Assembly: GCA_046759165.1 (NCBI GenBank)
Contig: JBHIBS010000001.1
Span: 4,002-68,001, forward strand
DNA: 64,000 nt
DNA from: a bacterium
GTDB lineage: Bacteria > UBA6262 > WVXT01
Direction: 5' to 3'
This document shows, piece by piece, positions 7,334-64,000 of the stretch (positions within the stretch are counted from its first letter, which is position 1; each line of letters begins with the position of its first letter). The notes under the pieces are model-generated. The model was given only the letters and a program-made list of their open reading frames with translations. It ran no database searches and was not told the origin of the DNA. A program made the translations under genes and the position numbers.

Positions 7334-7452
7334 CCCTGGCGATGTCCTACTCTTCCATACCGTTACCAGTACAGTACCATCAGCGCTGGAGGCCTTAACT
7401 TCTGTGTTCGGGATGGGAACAGGTGTTTCACCTCCGCCATAATCGCCAGGGG
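7334..7452 (-). rRNA. rrf: 5S ribosomal RNA
   Basis: Reverse complement reads CCCTGGCGATTATGGCGGAGGTGAAACACCTGTTCCCATCCCGAACACAGAAG...GGAAGAGTAGGACATCGCCAGGG, a canonical 5S. Confidence 0.9.
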
Positions 7453-7479
7453 AAAACGTTTAATAAAATCAAATAGTAT

Positions 7480-10565
<3,086 letters not shown>

Positions 10566-10719
10566 TACTACTTAATTTTACTCGACGATATATTGAATCC
10601 ACCTGCATAATAGCAGGGTACCCTTTATTTGTCAAAGAGCAAATAAATATAAGAAACAAAATGTAAGTGAAAAATTCTCCCCACTTACACCCTATATCTT
10701 TCTACTTGTCTTTTTTATC

Positions 10720-10795
10720 TGGTGGAGAATACCGGACTTGAACCGGTGACCTCCTCGGTGCAAGCGAGGCGCTCTCCCAACTGAGCTAATTCCCC
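10720..10795 (-). tRNA. tRNA-Ala (anticodon UGC), CCA encoded
   Basis: Reverse complement GGGGAATTAGCTCAGTTGGGAGAGCGCCTCGCTTGCACCGAGGAGGTCACCGGTTCAAGTCCGGTATTCTCCACCA. Confidence 0.93.
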
Positions 10796-10891
10796 ATGTA
10801 GATGCGCAGAATATTTCTTAACTTATAAACTGGGCCAGACCCACAAAAAAGGCAGATGAAGGAAACGAGTTCTCACTTACCCCTGCCTCTT

Positions 10892-10968
10892 TGGTGGGCC
10901 TTTCTGGGTTCGAACCAGAGACCTCTACCTTATCAGGATAGCGCTCTAACCAACTGAGCTAAAGGCCC
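10892..10968 (-). tRNA. tRNA-Ile (anticodon GAU), CCA encoded
   Basis: Reverse complement GGGCCTTTAGCTCAGTTGGTTAGAGCGCTATCCTGATAAGGTAGAGGTCTCTGGTTCGAACCCAGAAAGGCCCACCA. Confidence 0.93.
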
Positions 10969-11090
10969 TTTCTGAATTGACCTAAGATTTATATAGTTAA
11001 TATAAACTTTTTCTTATATAACTGAGCCTTTTAGCCTCCTATTAACATTTATTAAAATTAAATAGGAGCTGAAGCCAAAAACCCTGAAAT

Positions 11091-12691
<1,601 letters not shown>

Positions 12692-12768
12692 GGAAATTTA
12701 CTCAACACCTTGAATTGACCAGGGTTATCTGGCTCCAATGCTCCTATTTTGATTTCAAAGAACTAACC

Positions 12769-48878: not shown

Positions 48879-49766
48879 CTATGTAGAAAAAGTCTTGGGT
48901 ATTTGCGATAGGTTCGATATTTTGTCCATGACCTCATCTGCCATTTTTTGCAATGTATTTTTACTGGTCTTTTTGCCGAAGTACTTATTTAGAAAAATCT
49001 GCTCACCTATGCGGACTTTACACCTGCGAGAAAGACGGGGAAAAGGCACATCTCTCGGGAATACATCAAATGTCCCTGTAATGCCCACAGGGATTATTGG
49101 GACCCTTGCTACTATTCCAAGTTTTACAAATCCTAGTTTCCCTCTCTGAATTTTTCCATTTATAGATCTACTTCCTTCCGGGAATATTACTACCACTTTA
49201 TTTTGCTGCAAAATCTTCACTACTTCTCTAAAATATTTTACTCCAGGTTCTTCTCTGTCCAAGTAAATCCTCTCGTTATATCTCATAAACCATCTTAAAA
49301 TCGACACTCGATGTAATTCCCGTGCTGCCAAAAAATATAATCTTCTTCTTATTACAGCAGATATAATAAAGAAATCAAGATAACTAGCGTGATTTGCCAC
49401 AATGATAGCACTATCTAATTTCGGCACACTCTCTATACCTTCTACTTCCCGTATCCAAAAAAGATAAAGAATTGCCCTTACTATTGGCTTTGTTAACAGA
49501 TAAAAGACTCTTACGAGTAGTGGAGTTCTACGGTCAAATGCCCTGCGTTCGGATTTTGATCTCCTGTCGAGGAAATCGATCTCTATTTTTTTGACCCTTC
49601 GTTCCTTACGTCTACGTTCCCTTTGTTTACGGCTGTTCATGTATACATTTTGCTTCTGATAAGGGTCTTCAATCAACCTATGTTTAATTTTATAACTTGC
49701 AAAATTACCCAGCATCTCGTCATCTTTAGTATACATTTTGCCAAGAATGTGCCAGATTTTGCCCAT
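48879..49766 (-). CDS. Lysophospholipid (1-acyl-sn-glycerol-3-phosphate) acyltransferase family protein, PlsC-like
   Basis: HxxxxD motif in IVANHASYLDF and FPEGSRS motif. A TM helix precedes the domain. About 80 aa of Arg/Lys-rich N-terminal sequence has an uncertain start. Confidence 0.8.
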   Translation of the reverse strand: MGKIWHILGKMYTKDDEMLGNFASYKIKHRLIEDPYQKQNVYMNSRKQRERRRKERRVKKIEIDFLDRRSKSERRAFDRRTPLLVRVFYLLTKPIVRAILYLFWIREVEGIESVPKLDSAIIVANHASYLDFFIISAVIRRRLYFLAARELHRVSILRWFMRYNERIYLDREEPGVKYFREVVKILQQNKVVVIFPEGSRSINGKIQRGKLGFVKLGIVARVPIIPVGITGTFDVFPRDVPFPRLSRRCKVRIGEQIFLNKYFGKKTSKNTLQKMADEVMDKISNLSQIPKTFST

Positions 49767-49923
49767 TGACTCTTTTTCAGACTCCTTGGTCGGCGACCAT
49801 CCCGCTCGGGCAAAGTTAATTGCAGGTTGTCCCCACGTTCTTTTTGGATATCTGAGAATTCATCTGTGGATTCTGTCAATGAAGCCTCCCTTTTCGGAAG
49901 GACTCCAATTTTGAGCTGCCAGC

Positions 49924-51291
49924 CTAAATTTTCGTCAAAATTTCTTCCCCGATTTTATAGACGTCGCCGGCTCCTAATGTGAGAAGCAGATCCTGGGGGC
50001 GTACCCTTTTGACGACCTCCTCAATTAGAGCTTCTCGGTTTGAAACCAAAGTAACAGTTCCTCTCTTCTCGGCAGGGAAGGATTCCAGGATTAAGGATGA
50101 AGAGATTCCTGGAATGGGCTTCTCTCCCGCAGAATAGATATCTGTGAGCCAAATTTGGCTGACACTTTCAAAGGAGGGTCCAAATTTTTCTGCTAGGTCT
50201 CTCGTGCGCGTATACCGATGCGGCTGGAAGATAACTAACAGCCTCCTTTCTGGCCAGATCGATTTGATCGTCTCCAGAGTTACTCTTATTTCTGTGGGAT
50301 GGTGTCCATAGTCGTCTATAAACACTATATCGTTCTTTCTGGCCTTAATCTCCAGCCTTCGACTAACGCCAGTAAAATCAACAAAAGCCTTTCGAATCTT
50401 TTCAAATTCTATTCCCAGTTCAATACCGACCGCAGCTGCGCCTAGAGAGTTGATGACGTTATAAGCTCCAGGAAGGTGCAGTTTGAGCCTGCCCAGATTT
50501 CTTCCAGAAAAGCAGAGGTCAAATTCAGTGTCCATTCCTTCATACACTATATTTTCCGCATAAAAATCAAGGGTTTTCCCTCTCCCATAAGTATAATATT
50601 TTCTCGTTATTTGAGGAATAATTGACTTGATATTCAGATCCTCACCGCAAAGGATAATAGACCCATAAAAAGGAACTTTATTTACGAACTGTATAAAAGC
50701 ACTTTTGATATTATCCAAGGTTTTATAGTAATCAAGATGGTCATCGTCTATATTTGTGAGAAGGGCGATAGTGGGAGTAAGTTTGAGAAAAGAGCCGTCG
50801 CTCTCATCTGCTTCAGCCACTATGAACTCCCCCTTACCCAATTTAGCAGAAGAGCCAATATTTTTTAAACGCCCGCCAATTACTACTGTGGGATCCAATC
50901 CACCCTCCGCCAGAACCATGGCTACAAGTGAAGTGGTCATTGTTTTTCCATGGGTACCAGCAATTGTCAGAGCATACTTCAACCTCATCAACTCGGCAAG
51001 CATCTCAGCTCGAGGAATAACTGGAATTTTAAGTTTCTTTGCTTGAACCACTTCCGGATTATCAAGGAGTACCGCGCTGGAAGTAACCACCACGTGGGCA
51101 TCTCCCACCTGTTTAGGTCTATGACCGATAAATATTTCACCGCCCAGGGATGCCAACCTCTGTGTCACCTCTGTCTGCCTGAGGTCCGACCCACTAACTT
51201 TATAGCCCAAATTTATCAGGACTTCAGCAATTCCGCTCATCCCCGAACCACCTATTCCCACCAAATGTATGTGTTGAATCTTCTTTAACAT
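49924..51291 (-). CDS. murC: UDP-N-acetylmuramate--L-alanine ligase MurC
   Basis: IHLVGIGGSGMSGIA N-terminus; Mur ligase central domain GTHGKTTT. Confidence 0.93.
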   Translation of the reverse strand: MLKKIQHIHLVGIGGSGMSGIAEVLINLGYKVSGSDLRQTEVTQRLASLGGEIFIGHRPKQVGDAHVVVTSSAVLLDNPEVVQAKKLKIPVIPRAEMLAELMRLKYALTIAGTHGKTMTTSLVAMVLAEGGLDPTVVIGGRLKNIGSSAKLGKGEFIVAEADESDGSFLKLTPTIALLTNIDDDHLDYYKTLDNIKSAFIQFVNKVPFYGSIILCGEDLNIKSIIPQITRKYYTYGRGKTLDFYAENIVYEGMDTEFDLCFSGRNLGRLKLHLPGAYNVINSLGAAAVGIELGIEFEKIRKAFVDFTGVSRRLEIKARKNDIVFIDDYGHHPTEIRVTLETIKSIWPERRLLVIFQPHRYTRTRDLAEKFGPSFESVSQIWLTDIYSAGEKPIPGISSSLILESFPAEKRGTVTLVSNREALIEEVVKRVRPQDLLLTLGAGDVYKIGEEILTKI

Positions 51292-51316
51292 TCTGGTTTA
51301 GCCTTTCGACAAGCCC

Positions 51317-52396
51317 CTACATTGCTTCAATTAAATCGGCCATCCTGGTGGCTGCATCGTCAATAGACAGTCTTCTTGTATTATCGGCCATGCCCCTCAA
51401 CTCTGCCTGGTCATCAATCAAGTGGATGATGATATCAGCTAGTATCTCACCCGTTAACTGATCGTCCTCAATGAGTAGACAAGCCCCTCTCTTTGATAGA
51501 AACTCAGCATTCGTCTTCTGGTGACCAGCAGTTGCATAAGGATAGGGAATAAGAATGCTGGGTAACCCTTTTGCTATGATTTCAGCGACAGTACTTGCGC
51601 CAGAGCGGGAAATTACCAGATCACAACAGCTATAGGCATATTCCATATGGAGAAGATAAGGAAGAACACATGACGAGTAATCTCTTTTCTCGTATTCTTC
51701 TCTTATTTCCGAAAATTGCTCAATGCCCACAATGTGTATAATTTGAATCTTCTTCCTCAGCGGGGTCAAAAAATTTAATGCCTTTACTGTTGCCAGGTTT
51801 ATGCTATGGGCGCCTTGACTCCCTCCAAAAACCAGGAGGTTCTTCTTGCCCTCCACCAGATTCAACTTTCTTACCCCCTCGCTTCTTGCACAACTTAAGA
51901 TGGATTTGCGAACAGGGTTTCCCGTAAGAAATGTCTTCTTAGAGGGAAAATATCTTTCGGTCTCTTTAAAACTGACCGTTATTATATTGACTATCTTGGC
52001 TAAAATTCTATTGGTCAGTCCAGGAAGAACATTTTGCTCGTGAATCGCACAAGTTATTCTAGAGATTTTAGCTGCCAGAACTACTGGGAAGGCTAAATAT
52101 CCCCCCATTCCCACAACTATATCTGGTCTGAAACATCGGAAGATCTGTATAGACTGGAAGAACCCTTGAATAAATTTTCCAAGAAAGCGGATAACTTTCA
52201 GTGAAAATCCCCTTACCAAACCTTCTCCCACAATTTGGAAGAATGAGAATCCACTTTCTTGTGCTATTCTCTCGCCAATCCCTCTCTTTTTTCCCACCAG
52301 AATAACTTCATTATTGCGTTTTCTCAACTTTTCTCCCAGTGCCAGACCTGGGTAAATGTGTCCACCCGTCCCTCCCAGAACAATCAAAATACGCAT
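51317..52396 (-). CDS. murG: UDP-GlcNAc:undecaprenyl-PP-MurNAc-pentapeptide GlcNAc transferase MurG
   Basis: GGTGGH N-terminal motif; GT-B fold; dcw position. Confidence 0.92.
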   Translation of the reverse strand: MRILIVLGGTGGHIYPGLALGEKLRKRNNEVILVGKKRGIGERIAQESGFSFFQIVGEGLVRGFSLKVIRFLGKFIQGFFQSIQIFRCFRPDIVVGMGGYLAFPVVLAAKISRITCAIHEQNVLPGLTNRILAKIVNIITVSFKETERYFPSKKTFLTGNPVRKSILSCARSEGVRKLNLVEGKKNLLVFGGSQGAHSINLATVKALNFLTPLRKKIQIIHIVGIEQFSEIREEYEKRDYSSCVLPYLLHMEYAYSCCDLVISRSGASTVAEIIAKGLPSILIPYPYATAGHQKTNAEFLSKRGACLLIEDDQLTGEILADIIIHLIDDQAELRGMADNTRRLSIDDAATRMADLIEAM

Positions 52397-52485
52397 AACA
52401 CCCCTCTGTGAACAAGAATCCTCGAAGTTATCCCCTTCGGGGGTTCACACCAAGATTCCTTTATAATGCAGATCTTCACTCTTCA

Positions 52486-52530
52486 GCTACATTCATTTAC
52501 GGGTTCGATGCATCGAACCCCTACATCCAC
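52486..52530. repeat. Intergenic repeat element copy A, containing a perfect 20-bp palindrome GGGTTCGATGCATCGAACCC
   Basis: CTACATTC-ATTTACGGGT-TCGATGCATCG-AACCCCTACA. Flanks are shared with copy B at 56236-56275. Confidence 0.6.
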
Positions 52531-52542
52531 TAGTTCCAGTTA

Positions 52543-53709
52543 CTATGTCTGTCTGGAAATATTGAGAAGTATTCCCACTCCCAGCAGCGAGAAGACCAGA
52601 GAAGACCCTCCATATGAGAGAAAAGGTAAGGTGATCCCTTTAGTTGGCAGACAAGCAGTAACTATACTGATATTTAAAACAGCCTGGAAGGTGATTAAAA
52701 AAGTAATTCCGGCAGCCAGTAAATTTCCGAATTGATTGGGTGCTCTTGTAGCTATACGTAGTCCCCTCCAGGCAACAAGAACGAATAGGAATACTATCAA
52801 GCTGGCACCCAAAAATCCGAGCTCTTCTCCAATTATCGGAAAAATAAAGTCCGAATAAGGCTCGGGTAGAAAGAACAATTTGGCCCTAGAAGCGCCCAAG
52901 CCTTTCCCAAAAAGACCTCCTGAGCCTAGAGCAAGAAGAGCCTGAACGGCCTGGTAGCCTATCCTCTGGGCATCAGCCCATGGATTGAGGAAGGTTAGAA
53001 TTCGCTCTCGGCGATATCCTACATGAAAAATTGCGAAATATAAAAGTGGTAGACTTAAGAGGACAAGCGAGAGAAGATGCGAAAGCCTAACTCCTCCCAT
53101 AAAGAGCATTACTAATATAACCAGTGCCAGGATAACAGCAGTCCCCAGATCTGGCTCGGCATAAACAAGTGTCAGAAACATTGCTGTTACTACTAGAATT
53201 GGCAAAAGCCCTTTTTTGAAATTCTGGAGTTTGCTTCCTTTCCGGTCTAAAGCATCCGCCACATAGAGAATCAAACAAAATTTTGCCATCTCGGAAGGTT
53301 GAAAGCTCACCATTCCAAACTTAAGCCAGCGCTTGATTTCTCCTGACTCTACTAGCAAAACTAAAAAGAGGAGGCCCAATGAGAAAACCATAAGCGGTCG
53401 GGAAAACTTCTGCAACTTGTTATAATCAACCCTTGCTAAAGCAAGCATTAAGAATGTGCCCATTACCGTCCAGATAAACTGCTTGGTTAGAAACAGATAA
53501 CTCGTGTCGAACTTTTTATGAGATACAATTGCGCTGGCACTGAAAACCATAACCACACCTGTGAAAACCAAGAATAGAACAACCAAGAGTAGAAGAATAT
53601 CGCAGCGATGATACTCTGGTGCATATAGGCCTTTCTTTCGCTTGTATCTCGGGCTTCTAAATCCTCTGACAAATCTTCTTTTTTGAGTTCTCAGATCTCT
53701 CTTACCCAT
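52543..53709 (-). CDS. ftsW: Peptidoglycan glycosyltransferase / lipid II flippase FtsW (SEDS family)
   Basis: Ten TM segments with conserved SEDS motifs; sits between murD and murG. Confidence 0.9.
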   Translation of the reverse strand: MGKRDLRTQKRRFVRGFRSPRYKRKKGLYAPEYHRCDILLLLVVLFLVFTGVVMVFSASAIVSHKKFDTSYLFLTKQFIWTVMGTFLMLALARVDYNKLQKFSRPLMVFSLGLLFLVLLVESGEIKRWLKFGMVSFQPSEMAKFCLILYVADALDRKGSKLQNFKKGLLPILVVTAMFLTLVYAEPDLGTAVILALVILVMLFMGGVRLSHLLSLVLLSLPLLYFAIFHVGYRRERILTFLNPWADAQRIGYQAVQALLALGSGGLFGKGLGASRAKLFFLPEPYSDFIFPIIGEELGFLGASLIVFLFVLVAWRGLRIATRAPNQFGNLLAAGITFLITFQAVLNISIVTACLPTKGITLPFLSYGGSSLVFSLLGVGILLNISRQT

Positions 53710-55109
53710 GTCTTGAAATCTTTTCCTCTTTCCTCAAAGTCGGAATACATATCGAAACTGGAACAGGCTGGAGAAAGGAGAATCGAGCTACCCGGCTGGC
53801 TTAAACCATAGGACAACTCTACTGCTTCCTTCATCCCATCTACCCTGTAAATGGTAGCCGAACCGATTAACTCCCTCTCTATTCTGGGAGCAGCTTGACC
53901 CAGCAAAACAAGGGCAGCGACTTTCTCTCTAACCAAATTCGTTAATGGTCTATAAGGCGCGCCTTTATCATAGCCTCCCATGATGAGTATAATCGGGGCC
54001 TGAAATGTTTCCAGCGCCCTCTGACAAGCATCAACATTTGTCGCCTTAGAATCGTTAATAAATCTCCTCCCATCGATTTCGCGAACCATTTCCAGACGAT
54101 GTTCTATTCCTGGGAACGCCTCAATTGCTCTTCTGAGCTTATTTCTCAATATACCAAATATATTTCCCACTGCAATGGCCGCCAGAGCATTCTCTAAATT
54201 ATGGGGACCAGGGAGCCTTACATCTTCAACTGAAAGTCCATCTCTATCAGAAGGAACTTTCGCCGTCGAGTCTAAATTGGAAATTATTCTCCCTCCCTTA
54301 ACAAAAACTCCTTTTCGCAAGGCTCTCTTACTACTGAAGAAAATAACTCGGGACTTCGCTTTCCGCCCTAGAATTCTACATCTCCTATCGTCTCCATTTA
54401 GAATACAGAAGTCCTTCTCTGTCTGTTTCTTAAGAATATTAGCCTTAGCCTGGGTGTACCTGCCCATTGTCTTGTGCCTATCCATGTGGTCAGGAGTTAT
54501 GTTCAAGATCACTGCCACATAGGGATGGAAAGACTTCACATTCTCTAACTGGAAACTGCTAATTTCGAGGACCAAAACAGTCCTCTTCGTAATCCGACCC
54601 ACCACACTGGATAGAGGCGTGCCAATATTGCCTGCAACCATTACGTTTCTTCTTCTGTCACTCTTTAACACTGCCCCAATTAACTCGCAAGTTGTGGTTT
54701 TTCCGTTGGTTCCTGTAACAGCCACGACAGGAGGAAATGGCAAAGTTTTCCAGTCGAGCTCACCACAGGCAATATTAAATGCCACCTCTACTTCACTCAC
54801 CACAGGGATTTTCAGCTCCCTTGCCTTCTCCACCAGGGGATTTTCCTGGGGGACGCCAGGACTTATGACTACCAAGTCGCATTCAGGAACTAAATTCTTT
54901 AGTCTGACTAAATCCTGGCGACCTGGAACAATCCTTACCCCTTTTTTAAGTTTTTTTATGTTACCTGTTAATTCCCTTTTACTCTTTTCATCGGTTACTG
55001 TCACTCTGGCGCCCCGAGTGGTCAATAGATTAGCTACCGCCAAGCCACTTCGGGCCAAACCTATAACTAATACTTTCCTCCCTTGGTAATAATTTTCTGT
55101 CAGTGTCAT
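53691..55109 (-). CDS. murD: UDP-N-acetylmuramoylalanine--D-glutamate ligase MurD
   Basis: Mur ligase GTNGKTTT; MurD-type N-terminal Rossmann domain (VLVIGLARSG). Confidence 0.92.
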   Translation of the reverse strand: MTLTENYYQGRKVLVIGLARSGLAVANLLTTRGARVTVTDEKSKRELTGNIKKLKKGVRIVPGRQDLVRLKNLVPECDLVVISPGVPQENPLVEKARELKIPVVSEVEVAFNIACGELDWKTLPFPPVVAVTGTNGKTTTCELIGAVLKSDRRRNVMVAGNIGTPLSSVVGRITKRTVLVLEISSFQLENVKSFHPYVAVILNITPDHMDRHKTMGRYTQAKANILKKQTEKDFCILNGDDRRCRILGRKAKSRVIFFSSKRALRKGVFVKGGRIISNLDSTAKVPSDRDGLSVEDVRLPGPHNLENALAAIAVGNIFGILRNKLRRAIEAFPGIEHRLEMVREIDGRRFINDSKATNVDACQRALETFQAPIILIMGGYDKGAPYRPLTNLVREKVAALVLLGQAAPRIERELIGSATIYRVDGMKEAVELSYGLSQPGSSILLSPACSSFDMYSDFEERGKDFKTWVREI

Positions 55110-56191
55110 CTAAGTTTTAACGCACTTAAAGCTATTAAGGCCAAAATAATCCCCACAATCCAGAACCTGATTACTACTTTTGGCTCGGACCAACCAATCA
55201 ATTCAAAGTGGTGATGCAAAGGTGCCATTTTCAAGACTCTCTTACCTCGGAGCTTAAAAGAAGCAACTTGCAGAATCACTGATAGCGCTTCGACCACAAA
55301 AATTCCTCCGACAATGACCAAGAGAAGTTCTTGTTTAATGATCAGGGCAACGATACCAATTGTTCCCCCTAAAAAGAGGGAACCAGTGTCACCCATGAAG
55401 ATCTCTGCTGGATAGCTGTTGAACCACAAGAATCCCAGACCCGCCCCTGCCATTGAACCCAGAAAGATGGAAAGCTCCCCAGCACCAGGAACCGGAACAA
55501 TGCGCAGATAACTGCTAAAATTAGCGTGGCCTGCCAAGTATGCCATCAAAGCATAGGTCATTGCAGCAATGAGGATTGAACCTACTGCCAACCCATCCAA
55601 ACCATCAGTTAAATTGACTGCATTGGAGGAACCAACCACGAGTAGAATAGCAAAAAGCGCGTAAAGCCACCCAAGATTAATGAAGAAATCTTTCAAGTAT
55701 GGTATATTGAGCTGGGTTACGTATCCGGGACTGACTGGATAGTGATAAAGATGAATTACAATAATTATAGCCAAAATTGATTGCCCGAAGAGTTTATACC
55801 TTGCTATAAGTCCCCGACTTCGCTTTTTTATCAATTTTAGATAGTCGTCAAGGAAACCCAATAGTCCCAACCAGAGAGTGGAGAGAAGAATAATTATGGT
55901 GAAGCGATTATCGAGACGAGCCCAGAGAAAGGTCGAAACAGTAAGGCTAATTAGAATGATTAATCCACCCATTGTGGGGGTTCCTGCTTTCTTCATATGG
56001 CTGGGCGGGCCATCTTCCCGTATCTGTTGACCTATATGCAATTGTTTCAATTTCTTTATTAACAGAGGTGCAAGGAATAAACTCAAAACCAAAGAGGTAA
56101 ATATAGCAGCCCCAGCACGAAAAGTTATGTATTTGAAAAGATTGAAAGGGAAGAAGTACACATGTAGAGGATATAAGAGATGATAGAACAT
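55106..56191 (-). CDS. mraY: Phospho-N-acetylmuramoyl-pentapeptide transferase MraY
   Basis: Ten-TM protein with NAVNLTDGLDGLA and PAEIFMGDTGS motifs. Confidence 0.93.
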   Translation of the reverse strand: MFYHLLYPLHVYFFPFNLFKYITFRAGAAIFTSLVLSLFLAPLLIKKLKQLHIGQQIREDGPPSHMKKAGTPTMGGLIILISLTVSTFLWARLDNRFTIIILLSTLWLGLLGFLDDYLKLIKKRSRGLIARYKLFGQSILAIIIVIHLYHYPVSPGYVTQLNIPYLKDFFINLGWLYALFAILLVVGSSNAVNLTDGLDGLAVGSILIAAMTYALMAYLAGHANFSSYLRIVPVPGAGELSIFLGSMAGAGLGFLWFNSYPAEIFMGDTGSLFLGGTIGIVALIIKQELLLVIVGGIFVVEALSVILQVASFKLRGKRVLKMAPLHHHFELIGWSEPKVVIRFWIVGIILALIALSALKLR

Positions 56192-56216
56192 TTACTCTCC
56201 AGATAACGACCTCAAA

Positions 56217-56318
56217 GCAGACTTTCGCTCTGCCACTACATACATTTACGGGTGCAATCAATCCAACCCCTACAGGAAGTATGTAGTTTCTTAGCAGAGT
56301 TTTGCTCTGCCGCTACAT
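56217..56318. repeat. MITE-like repeat element copy B with 8-bp terminal inverted repeats, flanked by a 25-bp imperfect direct duplication of the murF 3' end
   Basis: DR1 gcagactttcgctctgccactacat (56217-56241) and DR2 gcagagttttgctctgccgctacat (56294-56318, inside murF coding) share 22 of 25 nt. Between them, CTACATAC (56236-56243) ... GTATGTAG (56279-56286) bracket the core ATTTACGGGTGCAATCAATCCAACCCCTACA. Confidence 0.55.
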
Positions 56319-57715
56319 TCTTTCCTATAACAGCAAAGTGTAAGGTATTTCGTAACTTCCTCTAATCCCATCTTGCGAGACCCTTTAATCAGCACTGCAT
56401 CCTTTGCCTTCAGCAATTCCTTCAGTTTCCTAGAGGCAAATTTCTTATCCTTAAAAGAGAATATATTGCTCCTTTCCATTCCCCACTCACGAGCACCCCG
56501 AGCGATAAATCGGGCATCCTCTCCTATCGTGATTAAGCTATAGATTGGGCTGGTAGCCACTATCTTGCCAATCTCCTGATGAAATTTTCGACTCATCGTG
56601 CCCAATTCCAACATATCGCCCAAAACGACTATTTTCCGCTGGGAGGGAAAAGAGGAAATAAGTTCGCTTAATGCAGCTTTTACAGAAGTGGGATTAGCAT
56701 TATAAGCGTCGTTAATGATTGTGACCTTACCATATTTCAACTTTTCCATCCTCAGCTTGGGAAATTTGAATTCCCTAAGCACATCAGCCATCAAGGGAAG
56801 GGAGATGTCAAACTCTTTAGCAACGCTTATGGCAGCCAATGCATTATAAATGTTGTAACGTCCTAAACAGTATAAATCAAATTCCTTTCTATCTCTCCCC
56901 ACGTGGACGGTGAAAGAAAGTTTTTCCTTCCCCCAGGACCTACTTCCCACAACATCACTCGCCCGCACATCAGCCTGCCGGTTTGTTCCAAAAGTAATTA
57001 TTTCCCGTTTTATCCTTTTAAACTGGTTCCTCAAATGGAAATCATCAATATTTAACACGACTTTCCCTTGCGGAGGCAGAAGTTGAACAAGTTCCATTTT
57101 ACCAGAAAGCACATTAGAAATGCAACGGAAAAATTGGAGGTGGGTGGGACCGATGTTGGTAATTACCCCAATTTGTGGTAGGGAAATCTCCGCCAATCTC
57201 TTAATCTCCCCGGCGTGGTTGGCTCCCATTTCCACAACCAGAAACTCCGCCTCAGGAAAAATCCCGAAAAGGGTCAAGGGAAGACCAACTATATTGTTGT
57301 AGTTACCAGTAGTGGCTATCACTTTATACTTCGATAAGAGGAGCGCCTTCAACATATCCTTCGTTGTCGTCTTACCATTGCTGCCAGTTACTCCCACAAC
57401 CACAGGATTGAACTTCTGACGATAAAACTTGGCCAATTCTTGCAGGGCAGTCAAGGTATGGGCTACTCTTATAATCGCTATTCTAGTAGCCAGTCTTTTC
57501 TTCCTAGAAACAACCACCGCCTTTGCACCCTTTTCTATCGCCTCCTCGAGAAAATCGTGGCCATCGAACCTTTCTCCTTTCAGCGCAAAGAAGATTTCTC
57601 CCTTCTTTATAGTGCGACTGTCAATGGAGACACCTGAAATTTCTCCTCGCTGACTTCCACAAATTAATTCACCCCGGACGGCTCTTATTACCTCCCTTAT
57701 AGTAAGTCTTTCCAT
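56291..57715 (-). CDS. murF: UDP-N-acetylmuramoyl-tripeptide--D-alanyl-D-alanine ligase MurF
   Basis: Mur ligase GSNGKTTT; MurF domain order. Confidence 0.92.
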   Translation of the reverse strand: MERLTIREVIRAVRGELICGSQRGEISGVSIDSRTIKKGEIFFALKGERFDGHDFLEEAIEKGAKAVVVSRKKRLATRIAIIRVAHTLTALQELAKFYRQKFNPVVVGVTGSNGKTTTKDMLKALLLSKYKVIATTGNYNNIVGLPLTLFGIFPEAEFLVVEMGANHAGEIKRLAEISLPQIGVITNIGPTHLQFFRCISNVLSGKMELVQLLPPQGKVVLNIDDFHLRNQFKRIKREIITFGTNRQADVRASDVVGSRSWGKEKLSFTVHVGRDRKEFDLYCLGRYNIYNALAAISVAKEFDISLPLMADVLREFKFPKLRMEKLKYGKVTIINDAYNANPTSVKAALSELISSFPSQRKIVVLGDMLELGTMSRKFHQEIGKIVATSPIYSLITIGEDARFIARGAREWGMERSNIFSFKDKKFASRKLKELLKAKDAVLIKGSRKMGLEEVTKYLTLCCYRKECSGRAKLC

Positions 57716-57716
57716 A

Positions 57717-59234
57717 CTATTCCTTGTTAAATTTCATTTCTTCCAAAAGAATCTTCCTGGCAACTTCACGGTCATCGAAGTGAACTCTTCTGTCCTTAAA
57801 GATCTGGTAGTCCTCATGTCCTTTCCCGGCAATTACGACCAAATCGCCCTTTTCCCCCATGGACAATGCCTTCTCGATCGCTTGAAACCTATCGATGATA
57901 GTCTGATAATTACTCTTCCCTTTCCTCTTTATTCCTACTTCAATGTCGAGAGCTATCCGCTCAGGATCTTCACTCCGGGGATTATCCGACGTGACAATGA
58001 CATAATCACTAAGATCAATGGCTACCTCACCCATCAGAGGTCTCTTCCCCCGATCCCGATCACCCCCGCAACCAAAAACAGTAATGATTCGCCTGGGCTT
58101 TAACTCCCCGCAGGCGTCCAAAAGCCTCCTCAAAGCTTCATCGGTATGAGCATAATCGACTATCACTGCAAATGGCTGCCCACAATCAATTCTCTGGAAC
58201 CTTCCAGGAATGGAAGAGACTTTTTCCAATCCACGCTTAATAATGCCCAAACTTATGCCTTGACCTAGGGCAATAGTACTTGCAGCTAAAGCGTTATATA
58301 CATTATATTTTCCAGTTAGAGGTAAAACAATCTTCACTTCCCCTGTTGGGGACACGAGAGTAAAGGTAGTCTTATCCAGATTCAATTTTATGCTCTTTGC
58401 TACAACCTCGGCCTTCTTTTCAATACCATAGGTGATTATCTTTGCCTCTGTCGATTGGATAATTTTCTCTGTTGAGGAGTCGTCTAGATTCAAAACCGCT
58501 AGTTTCTCCCTTTCTTTCCGAGCATTCTTTCCCAGAATGGAGAACAGTTTAATCTTTGCTCTCAAATACTCCTCCATACTCTTATGAAAATCGAGATGTT
58601 CGCGACTCAAGTTAGTAAATAGAGCACTATCGAACTCACATCCTTCCACTCTATCTAAACTCAAGGCATGGGAAGAGACTTCTATAACTACTGTAGTGAA
58701 TTCTTCATTTACCAACTTTCGCAGTATTTGCTGCAGGTCGGAGGATTGGGGAGTGGTAATCGGGGCAGGGAATATTTTCTCTCCAAGTCGATAAGCAATC
58801 GTACCCAGGACTCCCACTTTTGCTCCATTCTCTTTGAAGATGGCCTCGGTGAGATAACTGACTGTCGTTTTACCGTTGGTACCAGTTATCCCGATTATGT
58901 TTAATTTATCGGAAGGATAATTATAGAAGAAGGTGGCAAACTTTGCCAGAGCTAAGCGGGGATTCTCGACCACAATTTGAGTAGCGGAGCCTCCCCACCT
59001 GGAGGGTTTTGCCAATCCTTCTATTCTTTTAGAAGAAACAATTACTGAAGCCCCTGCTTCCAGAGCCTGTGGGATATAAGAATTCCCATCCTCTCTATAA
59101 CCAGAAATAGCCACAAAGATGTAGCCTGGTTTAACTTGGCGGGAATCGTAGGTTATCCCTTCTATAGAAAGTTCTGCTGAGCCGTGTACTTCTTTAGCAC
59201 CTATCGGCGGTAATAGGTCGTTTAGCCGGACCAT
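57717..59234 (-). CDS. murE: UDP-N-acetylmuramoyl-L-alanyl-D-glutamate--2,6-diaminopimelate ligase MurE
   Basis: GTNGKTT; DNPR motif consistent with meso-DAP-type MurE; stop abuts the murF start. Confidence 0.92.
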   Translation of the reverse strand: MVRLNDLLPPIGAKEVHGSAELSIEGITYDSRQVKPGYIFVAISGYREDGNSYIPQALEAGASVIVSSKRIEGLAKPSRWGGSATQIVVENPRLALAKFATFFYNYPSDKLNIIGITGTNGKTTVSYLTEAIFKENGAKVGVLGTIAYRLGEKIFPAPITTPQSSDLQQILRKLVNEEFTTVVIEVSSHALSLDRVEGCEFDSALFTNLSREHLDFHKSMEEYLRAKIKLFSILGKNARKEREKLAVLNLDDSSTEKIIQSTEAKIITYGIEKKAEVVAKSIKLNLDKTTFTLVSPTGEVKIVLPLTGKYNVYNALAASTIALGQGISLGIIKRGLEKVSSIPGRFQRIDCGQPFAVIVDYAHTDEALRRLLDACGELKPRRIITVFGCGGDRDRGKRPLMGEVAIDLSDYVIVTSDNPRSEDPERIALDIEVGIKRKGKSNYQTIIDRFQAIEKALSMGEKGDLVVIAGKGHEDYQIFKDRRVHFDDREVARKILLEEMKFNKE

Positions 59235-59373
59235 TCCTATAACCTGTATATGAGATCTTGCCTAAGCAAAGATATTCCTCCCTTTCGCGAGGAATCCAGC
59301 GCAAAGCCTGGAGTCTTCCCCTAGAGCGGGGACCAATATAAGTTGCCTTCTCGGGCGGATTCCTACATATTAT

Positions 59374-61071
59374 CTACGATTCAGGCGGGACACCGAGATG
59401 GTGCATAATTCTCAATCCAACTCGTGCGAATACCGGAGCAGCCACGCTTCCTCCCCAGTAAAATCCTTGTGGCTCATCCAGTAGGACCAAGATAGTGATC
59501 CTCGGTCGGTCTGCTGGGAGATAACCAACGAATGAGGCAATGTAGTTTGTTTTAGAATACTTACCAGTGGCTGGGTCGAATTTTTGAGCGGTTCCCGTCT
59601 TACCAGCTACCCTATACCCTACAATTTCTGCTTCTTTCCCCGTGCCATTTTCTACAATTCCGCACAAAATATCGGTTAAAGTTTGCGCTGTCTTAGAAGA
59701 AATCACCCGCCTAACCGGGCAGGGGTGGAATTCTGTCACCACTTTTCCCTTAGAATCGATGATTCTGTTAGCAATCATGGGTTCCATCAACACTCCTCCA
59801 TTGGCCAAACATGAAAAGGCAGAAATAAGCTGGATGGCAGTTACTCCTACGCCCTGCCCGAAAGAGAGGCGGCTGAGAGATATTTCTGACCAATCTTTTG
59901 GTTTCTTCAAAATTCCCGGCGTCTCACCCGGCAACCTAATTCCCGTGTAGTTGCCAAAACCGAAATCCCTTACGTACTGGTACAACCTATTTTTCCCCAA
60001 CAGCTGCCCCGCTTTAACCATTCCAATATTGGACGATTTTTCAAGAACCTGAACAAAAGTAAGCCAGCCCTCACCTTCGTGGTCTCGAACAGGAAACCCG
60101 TTGAGCACGTAAACTCCGTTCTCACAATAGAATAGATCTTCCAATGTGACGAGGTTCTCCTCCAATAATGCTACCGCCACTATTGGTTTAAAAGTAGATC
60201 CTGGTTCAAAAATATTAGAGATAGCAGGAATCTTTAAGTACTTATATTTTTCCGGGAAAGATTTATTTCCATTGAAAGATGGGAAGCTAGCCAAGGCTAA
60301 GATTTCCCCGGTTTGAGGATCTTGAACAATGATTGTGGCGAGTTTGGCTTTAGTTTCTTCATAAGCTTTCCTCAACTCCACTTCAGCAATGTACTGGATT
60401 ACTCTGTCGATTGTGGTGACTACACCGTATCCACTTACCTCCGATGGATAAGCAGTGCCAGCAGCGATTACTTCCCGACCAAAGCCATCTTTTGTCCCGA
60501 TAGTTTTCTTGTTTTTCCCTCTTAGAATTGTGTCAAAGGAATTCTCAATTCCGGACAGACCTTGATTATCCAGACCGGCTAAACCGATTACTTGGCTAGC
60601 TAACTCATTTTCAGGATAGAATCTTTTGCCTTCGCTCATAAACTCGATCCCTTTAAGATGCAAGTTTTTAATCTTTTCCGCAATTTCCGTATCCACTTTG
60701 CGTCTCAGCCAGACGAAAGAATTTGAAGTCTCCAATTTTCTGCAAATCGCTTTCTCGCTTAAATCGAGCAAAGGCGCTAACTTTCTAGCTGTCTCTTCCG
60801 GATTCGAGATGGAAGACGGAATTGCATAGACCGAACTAACTTCAAATTCTATTGCGAGTTCCTTCCCATTGCGGTCATAAATTGTGCCCCTTTTGAACTC
60901 ATATTGTCTGACCAAGATAGATTGCTTATCCGCCATCCTCTTGTACCGATGATGGCTAATAATCTGGATATAATACAACCTAATTTCCAATACGATAAGA
61001 GTAAGAATTACTACCAGAATAGAAGTGATAATGCGAGTTTTTCGAGGCACCTTTTGAATCCTCACGGGCAA
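59374..61071 (-). CDS. ftsI: Peptidoglycan D,D-transpeptidase FtsI (class B PBP)
   Basis: N-terminal TM, PBP dimerisation domain, transpeptidase motifs SxxK (STFKP), SSN and KTGT. Confidence 0.92.
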   Translation of the reverse strand: MPVRIQKVPRKTRIITSILVVILTLIVLEIRLYYIQIISHHRYKRMADKQSILVRQYEFKRGTIYDRNGKELAIEFEVSSVYAIPSSISNPEETARKLAPLLDLSEKAICRKLETSNSFVWLRRKVDTEIAEKIKNLHLKGIEFMSEGKRFYPENELASQVIGLAGLDNQGLSGIENSFDTILRGKNKKTIGTKDGFGREVIAAGTAYPSEVSGYGVVTTIDRVIQYIAEVELRKAYEETKAKLATIIVQDPQTGEILALASFPSFNGNKSFPEKYKYLKIPAISNIFEPGSTFKPIVAVALLEENLVTLEDLFYCENGVYVLNGFPVRDHEGEGWLTFVQVLEKSSNIGMVKAGQLLGKNRLYQYVRDFGFGNYTGIRLPGETPGILKKPKDWSEISLSRLSFGQGVGVTAIQLISAFSCLANGGVLMEPMIANRIIDSKGKVVTEFHPCPVRRVISSKTAQTLTDILCGIVENGTGKEAEIVGYRVAGKTGTAQKFDPATGKYSKTNYIASFVGYLPADRPRITILVLLDEPQGFYWGGSVAAPVFARVGLRIMHHLGVPPES

Positions 61072-61102
61072 TGAAAAAAGCTCTATTCGATGAAATTCTA
61101 TC

Positions 61103-61402
61103 CTATTTAAGATTTACCTTTAGAAAGAGAGTATTTTCATGCTGAGAAGAGACCATTCCCTTCTCTTCTCGAGCAATCCTATTAATATTTGCGAGATTAG
61201 TATAGCAATATAACTTTGCCTTTAGATGGCGATTTTCGTTTTCCAACAAGATGAGCTCTTTTTTCAATTCGTTAATCTGATAACTAACCGTGATTACTTC
61301 TGCACATTCCCAAACATAACATAGGAAAATCAAGAGACCACCAATAAAAAACAGAGGGTAATATTTTCCAAGCTTCTCTTTCTCCTTTTTTCCCATTAGC
61401 AC
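61103..61402 (-). CDS. ftsL: Cell division protein FtsL (septum formation initiator-like)
   Basis: 99 aa with a single TM and a coiled-coil/leucine zipper (LKKELILLENENRHLK); lies between rsmH and ftsI. Confidence 0.75.
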   Translation of the reverse strand: MLMGKKEKEKLGKYYPLFFIGGLLIFLCYVWECAEVITVSYQINELKKELILLENENRHLKAKLYCYTNLANINRIAREEKGMVSSQHENTLFLKVNLK

Positions 61403-62322
61403 ATTTCCCCTACCCGCAATTTTGCGCTTCTGGAATGAGGATTCATTTGAAGTTCCCTTCTAGATGGAGTAACTGGCTTGGGAAAAACTGTCTTCAAGCC
61501 TTGCCTTCTATATTCCCGAAAAAAGTTCTTAACAATCCTATCCTCGAGAGAATGGTAAGAAATGATACAAATTCTACCGCCCTTTTTTAGAAACCCTACG
61601 GCTTGAGGAAGTGTCTTTTCCAAAGCCATTAACTCACCATTTACTGCTATTCGTAATGCCTGGAAACTCCTGGTCGCCACGTGAATCTTTCTGGGCCAAG
61701 CTGAACGAGGAACTGCTCTCTTAATGAGTTCGACTAATTGAAAGGTAGTCTCCAATGGTCTCTTTTGTCGGAATTCAACCACTGCCCTCGCAATCCGCCT
61801 GGCCCAGTGTTCCTCTCCATAATTAGATAGAATCTCTGCAAGTTCGTCGAAAGATAGAGTGTTCAGGAGGTATCCTGCAGGCAATTTCGTCTTTTCTGAC
61901 ATCCGCATATCTAACGGTCCGTCCCTTTGAAAGCTAAAACCTCTCTTAGCATCTTGCAGTTGCAGGTTCGACAAACCCAAGTCAAATAGAATCCCGTCTA
62001 CTTCTTTAATTTTCAATGACTCGAGGATAGTTCCAATTTCAGAAAAGTTTCTCTCAAAAGTGAGCAGGTTTTCTCTATATTTCTTAAGATTTTCCTTTGC
62101 CCTTCTTATCGCCTCTGCATCCTGATCAATTCCGATCAGGAATCCACCTGGCAGGATCGCTTCCAGTATCCTTTGAGCGTGACCACCTTCGCCCAGAGTA
62201 GAATCTATGTAGACTTTTCCTTTTAGACAATTAAGATTATCTACTACCTCGTCAACTAAGACTGGAATGTGTCTTGACTCTTCCACTTTGTGTTGGAGGG
62301 GGGTGTCAGATTCCAAGGTCAA
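61396..62322 (-). CDS. rsmH: 16S rRNA (cytosine1402-N4)-methyltransferase RsmH (MraW)
   Basis: HIPVL, DSTLGEGGHA and D.G.S..Q motifs. Confidence 0.93.
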   Translation of the reverse strand: MTLESDTPLQHKVEESRHIPVLVDEVVDNLNCLKGKVYIDSTLGEGGHAQRILEAILPGGFLIGIDQDAEAIRRAKENLKKYRENLLTFERNFSEIGTILESLKIKEVDGILFDLGLSNLQLQDAKRGFSFQRDGPLDMRMSEKTKLPAGYLLNTLSFDELAEILSNYGEEHWARRIARAVVEFRQKRPLETTFQLVELIKRAVPRSAWPRKIHVATRSFQALRIAVNGELMALEKTLPQAVGFLKKGGRICIISYHSLEDRIVKNFFREYRRQGLKTVFPKPVTPSRRELQMNPHSRSAKLRVGEMC

Positions 62323-62734
62323 CCAATTTCTCAGCTACCTCAACAAATTTCTTTTCAGCCTCCTTCTGGTAGCGCTGCCAGTTGCTTTTTGACCAAATCT
62401 CGATGCGATCCAACACCCCCACTACTATTGTCTCTTTTCTTATGTTCGCATAGTTGCATAGGTTCTTGGGAATAAGTATCCTACCTTGATCATCCAGATC
62501 ACATTCACTTGCTCCAGAAAGGAAAGTGCGCAAAAACCTACGGGCGTCAGCTTTAGTTAGAGGAAGGGCTTTAAACCTTTCTGTAATTTTTTTCCAATTA
62601 TCGGAAGTGTAAACAAATAGACAACCCTCCAACCCAGAAGTGATAACAAACCTTCTTACGTTTTGACGAAGCCTGGCAGGAATGAAGAGTCGGTTCTTTC
62701 CATCTAAAGAATGGTGATATTGTCCGATCAGCAT
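62306..62734 (-). CDS. mraZ: Transcriptional regulator MraZ
   Basis: Duplicated MraZ domains with DxxxR motifs (LDGKNRLFIPARLR, LDDQGRILIPKNL); first gene of the dcw operon. Confidence 0.93.
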   Translation of the reverse strand: MLIGQYHHSLDGKNRLFIPARLRQNVRRFVITSGLEGCLFVYTSDNWKKITERFKALPLTKADARRFLRTFLSGASECDLDDQGRILIPKNLCNYANIRKETIVVGVLDRIEIWSKSNWQRYQKEAEKKFVEVAEKLVDLGI

Positions 62735-62737
62735 CGG

Positions 62738-62767
62738 TTCACCACCTTACACCACTTTTCCCCACTG
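62738..62767 (-). promoter_or_regulatory. Three 10-bp-phased direct repeats (CAGTGGGGAA / AAGTGGTGTA / AGGTGGTGAA) resembling an MraZ operator
   Basis: Minus-sense leader CAGTGGGGAAAAGTGGTGTAAGGTGGTGAACCGATG. MraZ is known to bind GTGGG/GTGGT repeats spaced about 10 bp apart in mra promoters. Confidence 0.55.
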
Positions 62768-62775
62768 CGTATCAG

Positions 62776-62804
62776 ATTATATCGCAACTCTGTTATTTTG
62801 TCAA
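62776..62804 (-). promoter_or_regulatory. Perfect consensus sigma70 promoter Pmra (TTGACA-17-TATAAT)
   Basis: Minus-sense TTGACA (62799-62804), spacer AAATAACAGAGTTGCGA, TATAAT (62776-62781). Confidence 0.7.
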
Positions 62805-63093
62805 GCAAAAAATCAAAAAAAATCGAATTTGCCCCAGGATAAAATAAATACATAGACGGAAACTGAAGTGCCAGAGCCGCCGCGGACGGACGACCTTCAC
62901 GGTCGCCCAACCCACTCTGCTTTATCATCATGTCATAGCGAGCGACTGAAAGGAGGGTGACAATCCGACCCGAATCGGTCATTGCGAGGGTGAAGCCCGT
63001 GGTCCAGATGAATGGGGACTTCCCTTTGCCTTTCATTTCATTCAGCGACAAGGTCGCAATGACAGCGCCTTACCCTACAAAAAGGGAGTGTGG

Positions 63094-63113
63094 GGGTTCG
63101 ATTCATCGAACCC
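63094..63113. repeat. Third copy of the near-palindrome GGGTTCGATTCATCGAACCC (one mismatch from the perfect palindrome at 52501-52520)
   Basis: Direct sequence comparison; it lacks the ATTTACGG/AACCCCTACA flanks of copies A and B. Confidence 0.5.
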
Positions 63114-63167
63114 GCCGACCAAAGATGGCACCATAAACGGTGCCCGACCAGGGATGGTCTTATCAAA

Positions 63168-63215
63168 TAAAAAAATCCCGGGAGATAAATTGGTTATCTT
63201 CCCGGGAAATTTTTT
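63168..63215. terminator. Bidirectional rho-independent terminator
   Basis: A-run, hairpin TCCCGGGAGATAA...TTATCTTCCCGGGA, then T-run. It lies immediately downstream of the 63221-63475 minus-strand ORF and is functional in either orientation. Confidence 0.7.
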
Positions 63216-63220
63216 TAATT

Positions 63221-63475
63221 TTAACTTTCCCGTGCCCTACTCTTCGCCCACCTTTCCTCAATAGTTCGACGAAAGCGCGGTGCATACACTATTTCCCAAG
63301 TGGTCTCTTTCCCAGGAAACATCTTTAATGCCGAGCACCGAATGGACTCGACTATTTGTTCAGCTTCTCTTCGCGAAAGGCGCTCCTGACGAAGGACAGC
63401 CAGACCTAAGTTCACCATCATCTTCAGATAGCGAATTTTTCTATTCTCCTCCTCCACCGAACCATTCTTTTCCAT
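63221..63475 (-). CDS. Hypothetical protein (84 aa)
   Basis: ORF directly followed by a strong terminator; no family recognised. Confidence 0.4.
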   Translation of the reverse strand: MEKNGSVEEENRKIRYLKMMVNLGLAVLRQERLSRREAEQIVESIRCSALKMFPGKETTWEIVYAPRFRRTIEERWAKSRARES

Positions 63476-63509
63476 CTTTACCCATCCTGAATCTGCATTA
63501 TGAATTATG

Positions 63510-64000
63510 CTACTCGACCAATTCTAATCTTGGATTGGGACTATATTGACGCCCTACCTTGGCACAAAGCTTACCCTCTACCGTCACCACATCAGCAGTG
63601 AAGTCTATCTTCTCTCTAAAAAGGGCAGAACCTACTCCTACTGCATCAAATGGCACACCAAGCTTGACGAAATGCCTTATTCTTTCTTCATCAAATCCGC
63701 TGGAAATAACGATCTTCACGTTACCAAACCCTGCCTCATCAAAGCATTTCCTCGCCTTCCAGCAGAGTTCAGGGGAAACACCATAAGAATTCTTCCCTCT
63801 GTCCTTAACCGACTTATCTCGGATGTCGCTGGCTGTGTCGAACCTTACTCCCCACAGCCTCTTGCCAAGAACTTTAGCAACTTCTAAAGAAGTCCTTATG
63901 CAATCGTTTTCGAAATCTACCAGAACTATCCTGGGAACATCTTTAGCCATATACTTATCAAATGTTTTTGCTGCTGTAACAGTATCTCCTCCATAGGTAG
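63510..64000 (-). CDS. Nicotinate phosphoribosyltransferase-family protein, C-terminal part (N-terminus lies beyond the window end)
   Basis: The frame stays open to the window edge. The C-terminal region (GVRFDTASD..., AVGVGSAL) resembles archaeal-type NAPRTase. Assignment is tentative. Confidence 0.4.
   Translation of the reverse strand, partial: TYGGDTVTAAKTFDKYMAKDVPRIVLVDFENDCIRTSLEVAKVLGKRLWGVRFDTASDIRDKSVKDRGKNSYGVSPELCWKARKCFDEAGFGNVKIVISSGFDEERIRHFVKLGVPFDAVGVGSALFREKIDFTADVVTVEGKLCAKVGRQYSPNPRLELVE

Follow-up and report, generated by a model that had tools for sequence, protein, structure and literature searches.

A perfect 20-nt palindrome located between the division genes ftsW and murG is very probably a member of the family of GTAG-tagged repetitive extragenic palindromes (REPs), present in spacers of the dcw cluster as a non-autonomous insertion or a relic. 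It lies in a 64-kb stretch of bacterial DNA, here called the window. What defines a REP is an unpaired GTAG standing immediately before a palindrome (PMC8266576, PMC3733652). The element, referred to as REP-A, is a short stem-loop with GTAG at one end and an oriented loop; it is preferentially extragenic, forms dimers and has sub-families with compensatory stems. A RAYT-like gene, the cognate transposase gene, flanked by REP is found in other genomes only (L125-L128, L006 and L083). A sequence-only reading of the window had offered a REP-like hairpin as one of two explanations for the palindrome, and these features bear it out. The copies of the window are most likely transposase-dispersed relics.

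REP-A and REP-B in the dcw cluster of the window

The dcw genes of the window are all on the minus strand, and their Pfam identities were taken from the orthologous locus L121. They are ordered mraZ (62306-62734), rsmH, ftsL, a PBP gene, murE, murF (56291-57715), mraY (55106-56191), murD, ftsW (52543-53709), murG (51317-52396) and murC. REP-A is present in three copies, every one in a spacer. Copy 1 (52501-52524, minus strand) is intact. Its GTAG tag (52524-52521) abuts the 20-nt palindrome GGGTTCGATGCATCGAACCC (52520-52501) in the context T-GTAG-GGGTTCGATGCATCGAACCC-GTAAATG, and the stem is 9 bp long (as folded, 8 bp with a 4-nt loop). This copy is situated 18 nt past the ftsW stop codon, in the ftsW-murG spacer and on the sense strand of the operon. 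Copy 2 (56250-56273, minus strand) is found 17 nt past the murF stop codon, in the murF-mraY spacer. It reads T-GTAG-GGGTTGGATTGATTGCACCC-GTAAATG and is decayed: the tag is present, the complementarity of the stem is gone and the centre, GGGTGCAATCAATCCAACCC on the plus strand, is not palindromic. Copy 3 (63090-63113, plus strand) is inverted with respect to the two others. It reads T-GTGG-GGGTTCGATTCATCGAACCC, with a mutated tag, the canonical TC loop and an intact stem, and lies in a 486-nt gene-free stretch, with a bidirectional terminator (63177-63206) on one side of it and the mraZ promoter on the other, about 290 nt upstream of the -35 box.

The perfect palindrome that the sequence-only reading had placed near murG was found at 52501-52520, and its one-mismatch version upstream of mraZ at 63094-63113. 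None of 100 dinucleotide-preserving shuffles of the window yielded any match to the palindrome with up to three mismatches. The flanks described as common to the murG and murF-mraY copies are likewise real and correspond to a 61-nt direct repeat (79% identity). Three points were absent from that reading, namely the abutting GTAG tag, the inversion of copy 3 and the nature of the common flank, which is a second GTAG-tagged hairpin.

This second hairpin, REP-B, has three copies, all on the minus strand. The first is degenerate (about 52467-52490, GTAG-CT-GAAGAG-TGAAGA-TCTGCA) and forms a head-to-tail dimer with REP-A copy 1. The second lies at 56217-56239 (GTAG-TG-GCAGAG-CGAAAG-TCTGC) and the third at 56294-56316 (GTAG-CG-GCAGAG-CAAAA-CTCTGC), where it overlaps the final codons of murF; the same hairpin is found at the murF end in L121, L123 and L124. 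The REP-B motif GTAGNNGCAGAGN6TCTGC has three matches in the window for 0.03 expected. Since the common flank is a REP-B hairpin, the 61-nt repeat (52465-52525, minus strand, repeated at 56214-56274) is a head-to-tail dimer of two different REPs, composed of REP-A, the linker GTAAATGNAT and REP-B. In a metagenome scan the composite was found only in the orthologous ftsW-murG spacer of two close relatives, and the idea that it is itself a dispersed unit was rejected on this basis.

All copies of REP-A and REP-B in the window, three of each, are located within the dcw cluster, although the window offers some 20 further spacers that reach 90 nt or more; with 3-4 independent clusters this bias is marginal (P ~0.05). 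GTAG hairpins overall are not enriched: the window contains two intact GTAG-tagged hairpins, compared with a median of four for arbitrary tetramers. The label "REP-rich genome" is therefore not warranted for the source.

A possible decayed partner of copy 3, proposed tentatively, lies tail-to-tail with it at 63050-63078 (minus strand, GTAG-GGTAAGGCGC...GCGACCTT), an arrangement resembling the tail-to-tail dimers of other genomes. The 486-nt region upstream of mraZ (62735-63220) also includes decayed palindromes at 63127-63144, 63045-63057, 62955-62971 and 62888-62908. An ORF predicted in the same region (62728-63051, 107 aa) is probably spurious, as no gene is called there in L121, which is 98% identical. 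At the stop codon of murG, which it overlaps, GTAGGGGCTTG (51301-51320, minus strand) agrees with the first part of the sibling REP GTAGGGGCTTGAT... with no hairpin after it; it may be a remnant or a chance match.

Spacer turnover and the predicted RNA hairpin

The MurD protein of the window has relatives in an uncultured clade at 76-96% identity, beyond which identity falls to about 50% (45-48% for Thermosediminibacter-type Clostridia). An exact match to the MurG sequence turned up only on a Logan contig of 1.7 kb. Four contigs of this clade were compared with the window, L121 (98% nucleotide identity) and L122-L124 (about 86%). The dcw coding regions align across all four whereas the spacers do not. 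L121 carries the same three elements, with a G-to-A change that breaks the stem of copy 3. In the relatives at about 86% identity, the dcw spacers differ in the identity, number and position of their hairpins. The ftsW-murG spacer of L124 contains a tail-to-tail dimer, GGGCTCAATAAATTGAGCCC-CTAC...GTAG-GGGTTCGATTCATCGAACCC; in L122 a REP-A copy is found between murE and murF, where five further GTAG/CTAC hairpins surround it; the GTAG hairpins of L123 are all of other kinds, with REP-A absent. Alignable coding regions separated by spacers that hold different REPs indicate that the dcw spacers are recurrent landing sites with turnover, and the palindrome is not positionally conserved in them. 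A further relative, L130 (95% identical), has the canonical centre GATTCATC at the orthologous place, so that the "perfect" palindrome of the window arose by one substitution in the loop, T to G.

Other small hairpins are found in these spacers. CC(C)-GAAR-GGG hairpins with GNRA-like loops recur on the minus strand at 52431-52444, 49885-49901 and 59275-59294, in the spacers that precede murG, the gene at 48879-49766 (murB position) and murE. Similar hairpins are present in the spacers of the relatives, even where the REPs differ, and they are possibly conserved RNA processing or stability elements.

In the RNA structure prediction advised by the sequence-only reading, copy 1 folds into a stable hairpin (-14.4 kcal/mol, z = -4.2; -8.8 kcal/mol as DNA). 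The value is -15.7 kcal/mol for copy 3 and only -7.0 kcal/mol (z = -1.1) for copy 2. A promoter and terminator scan identified no promoter-like or terminator-like site in the spacers of copies 1 and 2, and the internal promoter and intrinsic terminator readings were rejected for this reason. Termination at REP-A itself was also discarded: no terminator-like site coincides with any copy, there is no U-run and the 3' flank is GTAAATG. Rfam returned no family at the element, either at the gathering threshold or with E values up to 10 over 51000-64000. A search for a relationship with tRNA found none, despite the T-arm-like GGTTCGA.

Copy 1 is in sense orientation within a polycistronic operon that lacks a terminator, and it is therefore expected to be part of the transcript and to fold there into a stable hairpin 3' of ftsW. 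By analogy with other REPs, this hairpin could have a generic effect, either by impeding 3' exonucleases or as a weak attenuator, and an effect on mRNA stability is possible; effects of REPs on mRNA stability and attenuation have been reported (references 4 and 6, as cited in PMC8266576). A stronger proposal is that the hairpin has been exapted and is retained in the dcw mRNA as a segmental stabiliser, a processing site or an attenuator, which we consider unlikely; that it would set the expression of the upstream genes murF and ftsW relative to the downstream genes mraY and murG is equally unlikely. Exaptation is consistent with the position of copies 1 and 2, both on the sense strand 17-18 nt past stop codons in spacers lacking promoter and terminator, with the stability of copy 1, with the restriction of all window copies to the dcw cluster and with the retention of at least one GTAG hairpin in the same spacers of the relatives. 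However, the stem of copy 2 is lost, copy 3 is outside the operon, inverted and stem-broken in L121, the hairpins of the ~86% relatives vary in identity, number and position, and there is no U-tract. The decay of copy 2 and the mutation of copy 3 in L121 speak against selection for an RNA role, and there is no sign that the copy 1 hairpin specifically regulates division genes.

REP-A across phyla and the operator question

A scan for GGGTTCGATNNATCGAACCC was carried out on one genome per species (185,579 species). It returned at least 119 stretches with at least 134 matches in more than 15 phyla, where about 17 matches are expected by chance according to our estimate (18 specified bases, 1.2e12 positions). 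The groups named in the record titles include Omnitrophota, Atribacterota/Caldatribacteriota, Auribacterota, WOR-3, Desulfobacterota/Thermodesulfobacteriota, Clostridia, Spirochaetes, Gammaproteobacteria, Ignavibacteria, Gemmatimonadota, Chloroflexota, Actinomycetota, Planctomycetia, Zixibacteria, Cloacimonadota, Desantisbacteria and Stahlbacteria. Several matches are on contigs of 0.1-3.4 Mb, which speaks against binning artefacts. A single Omnitrophota MAG contains at least 23 copies of REP-A in at least 13 stretches, and several other MAGs have at least 4-6 stretches each. The consensus of the family is GTAG-GGGTTCGATTYATCGAACCC.

A genome-wide motif scan had been suggested in the sequence-only reading, with positional bias as the point to check; the scan across species shows both that other copies exist and that they are preferentially extragenic. 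Among the matches listed, 83% are outside ORFs of at least 120 aa and 17% inside, such ORFs making up 83% of the sequence of the loci. GTAG is present on exactly one side of 113 of the 133 copies (85%) among the matches listed, the others having mostly one-base variants of the tag. When the matches listed are oriented by GTAG, the central dinucleotide is TC in 57 and TT in 53, together 110 of 112, and REP-A is thus an oriented and not a symmetric sequence. Of the 649 20-nt hairpins in the scanned loci, 207 are preceded by GTAG, the next commonest tetramer accounting for 29.

Many REP-A copies adjoin sibling hairpins of the same shape with different stems (GGGCTTGATTCATCAAGCCC, GGGTCGGATGAATCCGACCC, GGGCGCGATAAATCGCGCCC and GGGCTCAATTTATTGAGCCC). 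The pairs are head-to-head or tail-to-tail, and many have the form GTAG-sibling...REP-A-CTAC. For siblings selected solely by the invariant frame GTAGGGG-N4-ATTYAT-N4-CCC, 70 of the 82 non-query instances are fully complementary in the free tetramers (chance 1/256), and at least 10 different stems are represented. In the 30 distinct frame sequences, 96.7% of the cells pair, and 54 double-sided changes are observed for 16.2 +/- 3.5 in shuffles; sliding the partner columns lowers the pairing to 19-51%. Three parts do not vary: the base of the stem (GGG/CCC), its top (AT/AT) and the TY loop. This pattern, as read from the aligned sequences, is that expected for a protein reading a hairpin together with specific bases, and not for a double-stranded DNA operator with fixed half-sites.

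These observations bear directly on the other explanation offered at the outset, that the palindrome is the operator of a dimeric transcription factor for division and cell-wall genes. Its appeal came from the perfect 20-bp dyad and from the two copies near gene starts in one cluster. It did not survive comparison with other genomes and is very improbable: the GTAG tag and the TY loop are asymmetric, the stem positions covary freely, as in a hairpin and unlike a fixed half-site, and the perfect symmetry is due to a recent loop substitution. Copy 2 is without dyad symmetry, copy 3 is stem-broken in L121 and also ~290 nt upstream of the promoter, and the position is not conserved in the orthologous spacers. 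Moreover, the element recurs in intergenic stretches (at least 119) of many phyla, and in only 1 of 119 among the matches listed is a dcw homologue found within 8 kb, 6.5 kb away. Finally, the place of an operator is already taken by a conserved triple repeat resembling MraZ boxes.

The mraZ promoter (62804-62776, minus strand) is a 12/12 match to the sigma-70 type, TTGACA-17-TATAAT. Just downstream of it, three GTGG repeats follow one another about 10 nt apart (62765-62740, minus strand). Both features are conserved in L121-L124. In E. coli, Bacillus and mycoplasmas, MraZ has as its operator a series of direct repeats of GTGG type that follows the mraZ promoter at once; the triple repeat presumably corresponds to MraZ boxes and, judging from its sequence and placement, is probably the real dcw operator. 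The palindrome shares with the MraZ operator a position upstream of or within the dcw cluster. It differs in three respects: it lacks the conservation that the MraZ-type repeats show in all relatives, its sequence is no direct repeat, and its copies are either within the operon or 290 nt farther upstream.

REP-A is essentially chromosomal. In a scan of IMG/VR, the GTAG-tagged form was found in only 4 of 2.9 million viral contigs (L132-L135), and carriage by phages is not one of its features. A CRISPR-like array was also considered and rejected, the spacing being irregular and the copies solitary or in dimers.

The window contains at least one more sequence of a repetitive appearance. The region 45-175 includes the palindrome GCAATCTCGAGATTGC and a GACATTGCGAG...GCAATC motif, and a segment of about 70 nt within it is 86-88% identical to intergenic DNA of two MAG contigs labelled "uncultured Clostridia" (L101 and L104). 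In L101 the counterpart of this segment directly adjoins a REP-A copy. From its sequence, it appears to be another dispersed repeat family. It gives a hint of the source lineage, and the source organism has lineage-specific repeats in common with MAGs that bear the label "uncultured Clostridia bacterium". The window also carries a complete rRNA operon (7334-12694, minus strand; 16S, tRNA-Ile, tRNA-Ala, 23S and 5S).

The partner transposase and the place of REP-A among REPs

RAYT proteins bind the REP hairpin in single-stranded DNA, need GTAG and cleave at a nearby CT or CA (PMC3479197, PMC8266576). GTAG-dependent binding and cleavage of single-stranded REP have been shown for the E. coli, S. 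maltophilia and Marinomonas systems (PMC8266576, PMC3479197), and both GTAG and the hairpin are required for the two activities (Corneloup 2021, PMC8266576). A RAYT (TnpA-REP) gene flanked by REPs constitutes a REPtron (Nunvar 2010, PMC2817692; Di Nocera 2013, PMC3733652).

Searches with regular expressions and with phmmer, run on the 64 kb of the window and on the loci L121-L124 of its relatives, identified no Y1/RAYT gene. The scanned loci yielded two Y1_Tnp genes; the one in L056 has GTAG palindromes on either side, which differ in sequence from REP-A. Y1-like genes of L006 (Omnitrophota) and L083 (Thermodesulfobacteriota), both cut by the end of the contig, begin right after GTAG-GGGTTCGATTTATCGAACCC. 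A protein search with this type of Y1 fragment returned 19 short proteins, and 7 of these start with ...VGVRFIEP..., the literal translation of the REP GTAGGGGTTCGATTTATCGAACCC. In L125-L128, a HUH/Y1 gene of about 130 codons is bracketed by REP-A (GTAG-GGGTTCGATTTATCGAACCC) on its 5' side and by an inverted sibling REP on its 3' side (GGGGCGGATAAATCCGCCCC-CTAC in L125 and L126, GGGTCGGATAAACCCGACCC-CTAC in L127 and L128), which is the layout described for REPtrons. Several of the REP-linked Y1 genes have become pseudogenes through internal deletions or a stop codon in frame.

The intact Y1 homologue matches the NCBIfam profile NF047646, "REP-associated tyrosine transposase" (REP_Tyr_transpos), with E = 7e-17 and 58-62 bits for a cut-off of 80, and the linked Y1 proteins score 19-20 bits with Pfam Y1_Tnp, whose gathering score is 23. 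The best PDB match of the intact homologue is 4ER8, the E. coli TnpA-REP (E = 2e-6; Messing 2012, PMC3479197), with which the HUH motif (THLHVIF) and the catalytic tyrosine (REYIxNNPL, Tyr115) align. The transposases linked to REP-A have diverged to about 60-77% identity. Unlike those of known REPtrons, the linked proteins are short and under the curated thresholds, several derive from pseudogenes and none is encoded in the window.

In L125-L129 gene callers run the RAYT-like ORFs through the flanking REPs, generating the artefact termini VGVRFIEP, SGSDKSDPY and GLDESSPY. Proteins with such REP-derived termini are P0121-P0126, P0130, P0135, P0136 and P0139.

The transposase also allows the possibility to be weighed that REP-A is the end of an insertion sequence of the IS200/IS605 type, or a MITE, instead of a REP. 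Y1/HUH transposases of these elements also read subterminal hairpins and the linked gene matches Pfam Y1_Tnp. However, REP-A consists of solitary 24-nt hairpins or small dimers with no cargo, without distinct left and right ends and without terminal inverted repeats accompanied by target duplications, and the linked gene is single-copy-like, flanked by inverted REPs and closest to TnpA-REP. We regard this origin as very doubtful.

For REP-A as a REP, a mechanism can be proposed by analogy with the systems studied. The top strand would fold into a hairpin of 8-9 bp in single-stranded DNA, and a HUH/Y1 tyrosine transposase (RAYT, TnpA-REP) would recognise the hairpin together with the unpaired GTAG and cut nearby, leading to dispersal or duplication of the REP. 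The usual outcome would be placement beside other REPs, which would give rise to dimers and clusters. The REP-A set of the window, one intact copy, one decayed copy and one with a mutated tag, together with the three REP-B copies, would be what remains of this activity, whose operation on the window copies we infer from those systems.

The properties of REP-A agree with those of the GTAG super-family as described by Di Nocera 2013 (PMC3733652), which include the GTAG tag, TY loops, head-to-head, tail-to-tail and head-to-tail dimers, GTGG variants and REPtrons. In both, an unpaired GTAG is followed at once by a stem-loop of 20-24 nt whose GC-rich stem measures 6-9 bp and whose TY loop is very short, and compensatory sub-families occur. 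Both are extragenic, located mostly after coding regions in unidirectional operons, and both show dimers or clusters, occasional GTGG tags and several families per genome. The systems available for comparison are the REP/BIME of E. coli, the REPs and REPINs of Pseudomonas and the SMAG of Stenotrophomonas, and the short perfect palindrome following GTAG directly resembles the group-3 REP of S. maltophilia. Unlike described REPs, REP-A is found mostly in uncultured anaerobes (Omnitrophota, Atribacterota, WOR-3 and a Clostridia-like lineage) rather than in Proteobacteria, an identical 24-mer is common to many phyla and the copy number in the source genome appears low. The REP-A sequence is absent from the text and supplements of Di Nocera 2013 and from the literature searched in full text. 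The kind of element is well known.

The result removes a tempting regulatory hypothesis, the palindrome near division genes being selfish or relic repeat DNA. It also documents a GTAG-REP family with a RAYT-like partner in a Clostridia-like lineage, Omnitrophota, Atribacterota and WOR-3, where REPs have hardly been described before, and explains an annotation artefact: VGVRFIEP, GFDKSNPY and the over-extended N-termini of transposases are translated REP-A. We propose, tentatively and with rather less than even confidence, that one REP/RAYT lineage, common to more than 15 phyla of mostly uncultured anaerobic bacteria, keeps an invariant 24-nt hairpin (GTAG-GGGTTCGATTYATCGAACCC) despite the divergence of its transposase. 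In the usual picture, REP/RAYT pairs are species-specific and vertically inherited. If the proposal is true, either REPtrons pass from one phylum to another or their age and the constraint on them are far greater than this picture allows, and long operon spacers such as those of the dcw cluster would be recurrent landing pads. REP-A offers a small and convenient system in which to ask how the sequence of a REP can stay identical across phyla.
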